The notes beneath the pieces are model-generated. The model did not search any database. It was given only the letters and a program-made list of their open reading frames with translations, and was not told the DNA's origin. 1,267 nt of DNA from sequence record AF039885.1. One strand, written 5' to 3'. The translations under genes were made by a program, and so were the position numbers. This document shows positions 1 through 1,233 of this stretch, one piece after another. Source of the DNA: a phage. Within the stretch, counting starts at the first letter, position 1, and every line of letters begins with the position of its first letter.

Positions 1-290
1 CGATTTCCGGCGGGCAAGATCCTAACAGTGCAGAATCTAAGCAATATGCTGCAGATGTAGATCTGATTGGTGAAGCTATGTGTGACGAAGATGGCGACAT
101 CATTAAGTTCGAGAAAGTTCCTTCTCTGGAACAAACCTATCCGGTTCCTACCTATGAAGAGCAGAAAGAAGCAATTCAAGCCTTCATGGAAGGTCGTGAG
201 AATAAAGATGACGATGCCAAGTCTGGTAACAGCAATGCTGGTTCTCAGAAAGGTATTGACCAGGAAGCTGCAAGCGATCTGGATGACTAA
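1..290 (+). CDS. 5'-truncated ORF (C-terminal ~96 codons) for a hypothetical protein with an acidic, Gly/Ser/Asn-rich C-terminal tail; function not assignable
   Basis: The frame is open from the window edge (first full codon at 3-5) to TAA at 288-290, followed at once by a second TAA at 291-293. The ORF track only reports it from the internal ATG at 78. Translation ends ...KDDDAKSGNSNAGSQKGIDQEAASDLDD. Codon choice is enterobacterial-like (CTG, CCG, CGT, GGT, ACC) and it lies 36 nt upstream of, and co-directional with, the next gene. The overlapping +1-frame ORF 67-330 is basic and starts at TTG, as expected for the wrong frame of an acidic gene. The first ~20 nt may be poor-quality read start. 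Confidence 0.6.
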   Translation, partial: ISGGQDPNSAESKQYAADVDLIGEAMCDEDGDIIKFEKVPSLEQTYPVPTYEEQKEAIQAFMEGRENKDDDAKSGNSNAGSQKGIDQEAASDLDD

Positions 291-326
291 TAANGGGAGT
301 TCCGGCGGTACCCTTTCTTTTAATAT

Positions 327-1148
327 ATGAGAATATTATTTAGTGCTGATCATCATATCAAACTAGGACAAGATAAAGTTCCAAAGGAATGGCAGAAGCG
401 TCGCTTCCTGATGCTAGGAGAACGGTTAAATGATATATTCCATAATCATAACTGTGATCTTCATATTGCTGGTGGTGATATACTTGATGTTGCCGACCCG
501 TCGTCAGAAGAAATAGAACTGCTTGAACAGTTCATGTCAAGACTTGACCATCCAGGCAAAATTTTTACTGGAAATCATGAAATGTTAACTAAAACCATTT
601 CGTGTCTGTATCATTACGCAGGGGTTATTAATAAAGTAACTAGTGGGAAGTGGGAAGTAATTACCAAACCATATCGTTCCCCTGAATTTGATATTGTTCC
701 GTATGATGAGATCCATAAAGCTAAGTGGAAACCTCCGGTATCAAAACTATGTTTCACGCATGTTCGTGGTGAAATCCCTCCACATGTAAAACCAGAAATT
801 GATCTAACTAAGTACAACTGTTATGATACTGTAATTGCTGGCGATTTACATTCCTATACTAATAGCCAGACTATCGGATCTACTAGACTCCTCTANCCAA
901 GGTCTCCATTAACTACATCGTTCCATAGAGAACGCACAAAAGGTACAAATGGGTGCTTTATTAATGATACCGACACATTAAAAGTAAAATGGATTGAACT
1001 AGGTGATTTACCACAACTGGATCCTAAAACAATCGGAGCAGGTGAAGAGATGGGACCTAATGATTATGATCGTGTANCCAACAAAGTTCCTGGGGACGTT
1101 GTTCAATTAAAGTCTATCAAAGACTCNGATTTTTTGTTAGNAGATTAA
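327..1148 (+). CDS. Mre11/SbcD-family DNA repair/recombination nuclease (calcineurin-like metallophosphoesterase), phage gp47/D12-like; 3' end uncertain because of base-call quality
   Basis: ATG at 327 is the first start after an in-frame TAA at 321-323. The 273-codon frame carries all five Mre11/SbcD phosphoesterase motifs in canonical order and spacing: motif I D8-H9-H10 (348-356, LFSADHH); motif II G49-G50-D51-x-x-D54 (471-488, GGDILD); motif III G82-N83-H84-E85 (570-581, GNHE); motif IV H145 (759-761, FTHVRGE); motif V G172-D173-L174-H175 (840-851, GDLHS). Four ambiguous codons lie in the frame: 894-896 TAN (Tyr or stop), 1077-1079 NCC, 1125-1127 TCN (Ser whatever the base) and 1140-1142 GNA. 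The stop is TAA at 1146-1148. Confidence 0.85.
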   Translation: MRILFSADHHIKLGQDKVPKEWQKRRFLMLGERLNDIFHNHNCDLHIAGGDILDVADPSSEEIELLEQFMSRLDHPGKIFTGNHEMLTKTISCLYHYAGVINKVTSGKWEVITKPYRSPEFDIVPYDEIHKAKWKPPVSKLCFTHVRGEIPPHVKPEIDLTKYNCYDTVIAGDLHSYTNSQTIGSTRLLXPRSPLTTSFHRERTKGTNGCFINDTDTLKVKWIELGDLPQLDPKTIGAGEEMGPNDYDRVXNKVPGDVVQLKSIKDXDFLLXD

Positions 1149-1149
1149 C

Positions 1150-1233
1150 CANCGGTTTCTAAAGACCTAATTANATCCTGNTGNTCTNNATNTNTTNNGN
1201 GNACTTGANCTATACTNCCNTGAAGNGGANAAG
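1150..1233. other. Low-quality read tail of the insert (about 20 N calls); content not interpretable
   Basis: N calls at 1152, 1174, 1181, 1184, 1188, 1189, 1192, 1194, 1197, 1198, 1200, 1202, 1209, 1217, 1220, 1226 and 1230. No reliable reading frame can be followed. Confidence 0.8.

Follow-up and report, generated by a model that had tools for sequence, protein, structure and literature searches.

Gene D12 of bacteriophage T5, encoding an SbcD/Mre11-type nuclease, in a low-quality clone read

The window (the whole stretch of DNA that was analysed, 1,267 nt) carries the 3′ end of D11, a gene for a single-strand DNA-binding protein (SSB), then the terminator hairpin that separates this gene from D12, and finally D12 itself as far as codon ≈ 304 of 325 (Table 1). 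D12 is the already known, annotated nuclease gene of the classical phage T5. In a megablast search of 50,697 phage records, 446 records were matched by the window; the best four matches were T5 genomes, 95.5% identical over positions 14–1225 and annotated with D11 and D12. The T5 genome NC_005859.1 (locus L001) served as the reference for a base-by-base comparison. The DNA alignment gave no mismatches in the intervals 14–292 and 318–853, clustered differences at 293–317, where the GC hairpin was miscalled, 15 substitutions and three N calls in 854–1131, and five 1-nt deletions together with 18 N calls in 1132–1231. Errors and N calls were more frequent toward the 3′ end of the read.

No T5 counterpart was found in this alignment for the sequence past ≈ 1233. 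The final bases read GGATCCTC(G)TAGAGTCGACCTGCAGGCATGCAAG, which we take to be the polylinker of pUC18/19 or M13mp18/19, in the order starting BamHI-XbaI-SalI-PstI-SphI-HindIII and with a single additional G. Bases 1–13 are probably vector or primer-proximal sequence that was called poorly. Because of this polylinker tail and the unmatched first bases, the window can be recognized as an unedited clone read, in which ≈ 47 bases are of non-phage origin. The insert is thus a T5 fragment of ≈ 1.2 kb read from vector junction to vector junction, with quality falling toward the 3′ end. It ends at ≈ 1233, in D12 codon ≈ 304, which is 21 codons before the D12 stop; according to the coordinates in the T5 annotation, the next gene, D13, starts ≈ 47 nt past the end of the insert.

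Table 1 Features of the 1,267-nt window (positions count from its first base)
Feature	Position	Strand	Details and basis
Unaligned read start	1..13	.	T5 alignment begins at 14
D11 3′ end	14..290	+	Identical to T5; phrog_1607; NC_005859.1 annotation
Terminator-like hairpin in the D11–D12 gap	294..321	+	T5 comparison, folding, terminator scan, T5 annotation
D12 codons 1–268, in frame	327..1131	+	T5 alignment, PF00149, phrog_100, PDB profile, fold search
Motif I, D8-H9-H10 (DxH)	348..356	+	D8 (348–350) and H10 (354–356) invariant; aligns with E. coli SbcD motif I
Motif II, G50-D51-I-L-D54 (GDxxD)	474..488	+	G50 and D51 (477–479) invariant, D54 at least 90%; aligns with SbcD GDVFD
Motif III, G82-N83-H84-E85 (GNHE)	570..581	+	Invariant (N83/H84, 573–578); aligns with SbcD GNHD
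Motif IV, H145 in FTHVRG	759..761	+	Invariant
Motif V, G172-D173-L174-H175	840..851	+	All four residues invariant in 45 relatives (H175, 849–851)
D12 continuation, codons ≈ 269–304, unreadable tail	1132..1233	+	T5 DNA alignment
Cloning-vector polylinker, not phage DNA	1234..1267	.	T5 match ends at ≈ 1233

The nuclease gene is represented in the window by an ATG-to-TAA open reading frame of 273 codons on the + strand (327–1148). An earlier note, made from the letters of the window, had reported this frame and left it undecided whether its short length was real or a read artefact. The frame is indeed present, but its 3′ end is false: a 1-nt deletion after position 1132 shifts the reading frame and thereby generates a spurious TAA at 1146–1148. 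Comparison with T5 gave a true D12 length of 325 residues, and the 273-codon length is a read artefact. The in-frame codons 1–268 cover the phosphoesterase domain and the greater part of the capping domain. Codons 1–189 of D12 in the window are identical to those of T5 D12, and codons 190–268 carry read errors; the C-terminal partner-binding region falls in the illegible part of the window. The T5 genes concerned are D12 (YP_006955.1, “putative recombination endonuclease, subunit D12”) and D13 (YP_006956.1), and the gene of the window is the same D12. The clean DNA and residues 1–189 are identical, the flanking D11 gene and terminator are the same, and the differences are confined to the read errors, the false stop and the end of the clone at codon ≈ 304.

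Taken literally, the reading frame that stops at 1148 would describe a short, stand-alone nuclease of 273 residues, devoid of the C-terminal part that binds the partner and acting independently of an ATPase. Such a protein is practically out of the question, since the TAA is created by the deletion after 1132, in a region crowded with N calls and further deletions, the full-length protein is encoded by T5 and 904 phage records, and D12 shares its real 3′ end with the start of the ATPase gene. Its length would also be at odds with the relatives: nearly all full-length homologues found in the protein database search have 308–338 amino acids, the exceptions being a small number of shorter or incomplete entries, and 325 amino acids is typical for the T5-like phage clade.

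The overall identity of 95.5%, rather than 100%, could be taken to mean that the differences after position 854 are real and that the DNA came from another phage of the T5 type, in which the C-terminal half of D12 has diverged. This is extremely improbable. The 815 clean bases agree with T5 throughout; after them, the differences rise steeply and are accompanied by N calls. The 15 substitutions (854–1094) fall predominantly at codon positions 1 or 2 (12 of 15), and they destroy residues invariant in the family (G192, Y252, and E253). None of the substitutions is common to phage IrisVonRoten, a 93%-identical relative that has the T5 base at all 15 sites. For these reasons, that is, the codon positions affected, the disagreement with IrisVonRoten and the loss of invariant residues, the substitutions are read errors and not strain variation, and the sequence is taken as that of T5 D12 itself.

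Upstream of D12, the reading frame at 3–290, with its TAA at 288–290, corresponds to the C-terminal ≈ 92–95 residues of T5 D11, which is annotated as SSB in NC_005859.1 (L001 4504–5277) and ends in an acidic tail, ...EAASDLDD. Its match to the PHROGs family phrog_1607, “single strand DNA binding protein” (E 6.6e-25), confirms the suggestion of the earlier note that the upstream frame does not belong to a partner ATPase. In the family libraries, T5 D11 was matched by PHROGs only (phrog_1607), with no Pfam or NCBIfam family match, so this protein represents a type of SSB outside the curated general libraries.

The gap between D11 and D12 contains in T5 a hairpin (L001 5283–5308) of the form AGAGGGGC-TTCG-GCCCCTTT, followed by CTTTTT, that is, a GC stem with a UUCG loop and a T-run, which folds at −13.9 kcal/mol. 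It was found by the terminator scan, and the T5 record lists it as a putative terminator. In the read, the stem was miscalled, with four extra bases, three substitutions and missing bases, which is typical of GC-stem compression. A hairpin with a T-run occupies the same place in relatives whose D12 is 46–47% identical (L003, L006, just upstream of 5001), with entirely different stems. Since the relatives keep the hairpin and the T-run despite the difference in stem sequence, this terminator or attenuator, which separates the SSB gene from the nuclease gene, seems to be conserved as a structure. The number of promoter-like sites did not exceed that in shuffled sequence (9 against 12.2 expected), and no D12-specific promoter is therefore claimed. 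The terminator before D12, together with the overlap of D13 with D12, suggests that D12 and D13 may be expressed below the level of the SSB and that the two subunits are possibly coupled in translation. Note that in T5 the ATG of D12 directly follows the T-run of the terminator (TTTCTTTTTAATATATG; window 313–329, L001 5300–5316), without a purine-rich Shine-Dalgarno sequence; in the distant relatives, AGG or GGGGGA is found before the D12 ATG.

The family, profile and fold searches identified D12 as an SbcD/Mre11-type nuclease, as the earlier note had proposed. The protein encoded by the window reading frame matched Pfam Metallophos (PF00149) with 27.2 bits against a gathering cut-off of 21.5 over residues 1–128, and PHROGs family phrog_100, “SbcD-like subunit of palindrome specific endonuclease”, with E 2.6e-44; for full-length D12, the latter match improved to E 4.2e-62 and covered residues 1–323. 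The protein database search yielded 5443 homologues with E ≤ 0.001; this number and the phrog_100 E value far exceed what chance would give. The best NCBIfam model for D12 was TIGR00619 sbcd (E 7.2e-10), although its curated cut-off was missed (39.1 against 77.65 bits), as was the cut-off of the E. coli SbcD equivalog in NCBIfam (22.6 against 450 bits). Scores below the NCBIfam SbcD cut-offs place D12 in a distant phage branch, and it is not a bacterial SbcD orthologue in NCBI’s sense. Similarly, the single-sequence phmmer search of the window protein against PDB was marginal, with E 0.09 to E. coli SbcD, and together with the sub-cut-off TIGR00619 score this marks D12 as a distant member of the family.

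Because the single-sequence match was marginal, a profile search was needed. The profile (A1) built from 32 D12 relatives matched S. aureus SbcD (3.3e-10), E. coli SbcD (6.9e-07), T. maritima Mre11 (1.4e-06) and P. furiosus Mre11 (4.9e-05) in PDB; all of the top 24 matches were SbcD or Mre11 (E 3.3e-10 to 2.6e-03), and other phosphoesterases first appeared at E 0.003. For the fold comparison, an AF2 structure model of a 75%-identical homologue (P0001; pLDDT 94.1, pTM 0.85) stood in for T5 D12. The model has an alpha/beta phosphoesterase domain, a beta-rich region at ≈ 209–275, a less confident linker and two C-terminal helices (291–302 and 307–321). In a Foldseek search of PDB with this model, the best 50 matches were all SbcD/Mre11 (top E 2.2e-12) and included 7dog, a “nuclease and capping domain” entry. 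As modelled, this layout matches the plan of Mre11/SbcD, namely, nuclease domain, capping domain and Rad50-binding helix-loop-helix, and the C-terminal helices of the model would be those that bind D13.

The broad Metallophos assignment of Pfam, limited to residues 1–128, and the appearance of PP2A catalytic subunits and a phosphohydrolase at E 0.003–0.01 in the profile search would also suit a generic calcineurin-like phosphoesterase, that is, a protein or nucleotide phosphatase rather than an Mre11-type DNA nuclease. This assignment is very unlikely, given that the best 24 profile matches and the best 50 fold matches, capping domain included, are to SbcD/Mre11, that phrog_100 spans residues 1–323, and that a Rad50/SbcC-type gene overlaps D12 in every relative examined. 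D12 is thus treated below as an SbcD/Mre11-type nuclease.

Conservation of the catalytic residues was scored in alignments of 32 and 45 relatives with 43–75% identity. D8, H10, D51, N83, H84, H145 and H175 were invariant in both alignments, and D12 has phosphoesterase motifs I–IV of the SbcD/Mre11 family. In motif V, D12 and each of the 45 relatives have GDLH instead of the usual GHxH; in the PDB profile alignments, D173 aligns with the first His of GHLH in S. aureus SbcD and of GHIH in E. coli SbcD. The earlier statement that all five motifs are intact is correct as to the residues it named, which are present and invariant, but it is true only if variation in motif V is allowed for, because an invariant D173 replaces the first His. 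Asp is able to bind metal. Owing to this replacement, the metal site of D12 may differ from that of canonical Mre11; the invariant GDLH is a small departure from the canonical Mre11/SbcD pattern.

The partner gene lies outside the window. In both T5 and IrisVonRoten, D13 is located directly downstream of D12, with the nuclease gene first and the ATPase gene second, and an adjacent gene for a Rad50/SbcC-type ATPase is found in the T5 genome and its relatives. The T5 D13 protein of 612 amino acids matched phrog_77, “SbcC-like”, with E 9.9e-133 in PHROGs and AAA_23 in Pfam above the cut-off, with SMC_N and SbcC_Walker_B below their cut-offs; its best NCBIfam models were TIGR00618 sbcc and Rad50, all below cut-offs. 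The sequence contains Walker A (GGNGLGKS, residues 35–42), a Q-loop (Q138), a central CPTC zinc hook (309–312), the signature STGQQ (525), Walker B (LLFLDE, 554–559) and an H-loop (SH, 588). The prediction that a partner ATPase gene with a Walker A motif would be found just downstream, in the sbcD-then-sbcC order and beyond the end of the clone, was therefore borne out. The description of the nuclease as “stand-alone” holds for the window taken by itself and fails for T5, where D13 overlaps D12: the annotated D13 start precedes the D12 stop by 20 nt. This overlap makes translational coupling of D12 and D13 probable. Note that the annotated D13 starts differ between T5 (20-nt overlap with D12, 612 amino acids, L001 6272) and IrisVonRoten (80-nt overlap, 632 amino acids, L002 5211), so the start codon of D13 is not settled by annotation. 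In the metagenomic relatives (46–47%), D12 and D13 overlap by 8 nt.

The wider gene order, which is common to T5, IrisVonRoten and metagenomic relatives with D12 proteins 46–47% identical, is as follows: polymerase, small ORF, helicase, small ORF, SSB-like protein, D12, D13, PDDEXK_15 nuclease, 5′-3′ exonuclease/FEN and dUTPase. The PDDEXK_15 gene, D14 (L001 8114–8596), is annotated as “RusA-like Holliday junction resolvase” and matched the PHROGs family of the same name, phrog_244. At the same time, its Pfam match is PDDEXK_15, “phage putative PDDEXK endonuclease” (E 1.8e-47), and the two names, RusA-like and PDDEXK, imply different folds.

The earlier note had also raised the possibility of an anti-phage defence module, in which D12 would serve defence or counter-defence instead of replication and recombination. 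In its favour, PADLOC gave weak matches of D13 to ABC ATPases that form part of defence systems (mad3, 1.1e-13; AriA; LmuB), all of which share the ABC ATPase fold. For D12 itself, PADLOC gave one marginal match only, to PDC-S10 (E 0.0003 over 50 residues). No defence-island context was found for D12; T5 is a lytic phage, and the gene belongs to its conserved early replication/recombination block, with the SSB gene on one side and those for the resolvase, flap endonuclease and dUTPase on the other, in an order kept down to 46% identity. A defence role is accordingly highly improbable, and that part of the note is not supported.

By tblastn, D12 was found in 909 phage records, whose hosts were mostly Vibrio, Salmonella, Escherichia and Klebsiella, and in more than 400 of the phage records it was at least 90% identical; among the matches listed, most were annotated as D12, SbcD-like or exonuclease subunit 1. 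In the large protein database, the closest cluster had 75% identity to the query, apart from a partial Enterococcus entry, and the results seem to lack the T5 clade itself, despite the more than 400 phage records at or above 90%. The exception (P0005) is a 161-aa “hypothetical protein, partial [Enterococcus faecalis]” from a 485-bp contig, 100% identical to the N-terminus of T5 D12. T5-like D12 DNA was also present in a handful of records whose names give Listeria or Campylobacter as the phage host. The Enterococcus entry and these records look like contamination or misassigned hosts.

Among the known systems, E. coli SbcCD (4LTY, 6S6V, 6S85, and 7YZO) resembles D12 in motifs I–IV, in the nuclease-plus-capping fold and in the C-terminal helical partner-binding region, and it resembles D12/D13 in having an adjacent ATPase with a zinc hook. 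The E. coli order is sbcD-sbcC, with the nuclease gene followed by the ATPase gene, as in D12-D13. The differences are also clear: identity between D12 and E. coli SbcD is ≈ 16%, the SbcD chain has 407 residues against 325, and motif V is GHIH in SbcD and GDLH in D12. The coiled coil of D13 is much shorter than that of SbcC, as follows from its 612 amino acids against the 1043 positions of the NCBIfam sbcc model. Phage T4 encodes another Mre11/Rad50 pair, gp47/gp46, which serves recombination-dependent replication; there the ATPase gene precedes the nuclease gene, and motif V of gp47 is still GHFH. T4-like phages were not reached by the D12 tblastn search at E ≤ 0.001. Archaeal and eukaryotic Mre11-Rad50 are represented by profile and fold matches of D12 to Mre11 of P. 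furiosus, M. jannaschii, S. pombe and human, and also of T. maritima, although D12 is much smaller and 13–18% identical, and no third subunit of the Nbs1/Xrs2 type is expected for D12/D13.

The analysis itself establishes that the gene is T5 D12, its family and fold, the conserved catalytic motifs, the partner gene with its full set of ATPase motifs, and the conserved gene order. A mechanism for D12–D13 can be modelled on the established knowledge of the SbcCD and Mre11-Rad50 complexes, from which we infer, by analogy, complex formation, nuclease activity, metal use and the biological role. A D12 dimer would bind the base of the D13 coiled coil via the C-terminal two-helix motif, with D13, encoded directly downstream, being the Rad50/SbcC-type ABC ATPase with its CPTC zinc hook. 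Binding and hydrolysis of ATP by D13 would cause the head to close on DNA ends or hairpins and to present the DNA to D12. The active site of D12 would comprise D8, H10, D51, N83, H84, H145, D173 and H175 as a two-metal centre, and the DNA would be cut by 3′-5′ exonucleolytic and endonucleolytic action. The resected ends would then enter recombination-dependent replication and the repair of T5 DNA, a role that the neighbouring genes would fit, these being the polymerase, the D10 helicase, the D11 SSB, the D14 PDDEXK/RusA-like resolvase and the D15 flap endonuclease. As a whole, the explanation combining a low-quality T5 clone read from a pUC/M13-type vector, an SbcD/Mre11 two-metal phosphodiesterase encoded by D12, and the D12–D13 mechanism outlined here by analogy is considered very probable.

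In the searchable literature, no biochemical reports on T5 D12/D13 were found, and the mentions were limited to the annotation level and one sentence in a 2025 preprint, which places gpD13/gpD12 of T5 among the Mre11-Rad50 orthologues, beside SbcCD and T4 gp46/gp47. The D2 helicase paper and the preprint on host-DNA degradation by T5 contain no mention of D12/D13.

In substance the earlier note was right, and those parts of its interpretation that could be tested all held. Since annotations of the gene, its family and its partner already exist in the T5 reference genome and in hundreds of genomes of T5-like phages, the finding by itself matters little. What it resolves is that the downstream ATPase exists, that the short length is a sequencing artefact and that the possibility of a defence module is unsupported. 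The system is only mildly unusual, in its invariant GDLH motif V and its compact subunits, and there is a small chance of a specialized activity. In particular, the 325-aa nuclease, the invariant Asp in motif V and the ATPase of 612 amino acids, whose coiled coil is very short, lend support to the idea, rather unlikely at present, that T5-type D12/D13 is a distinct minimal Mre11-Rad50 machine, whose specificity suits T5 DNA, with its nicked strand, long terminal repeats and concatemers, rather than generic end resection. If this were true, the altered metal site or geometry might provide D12/D13 with a T5-specific specificity.
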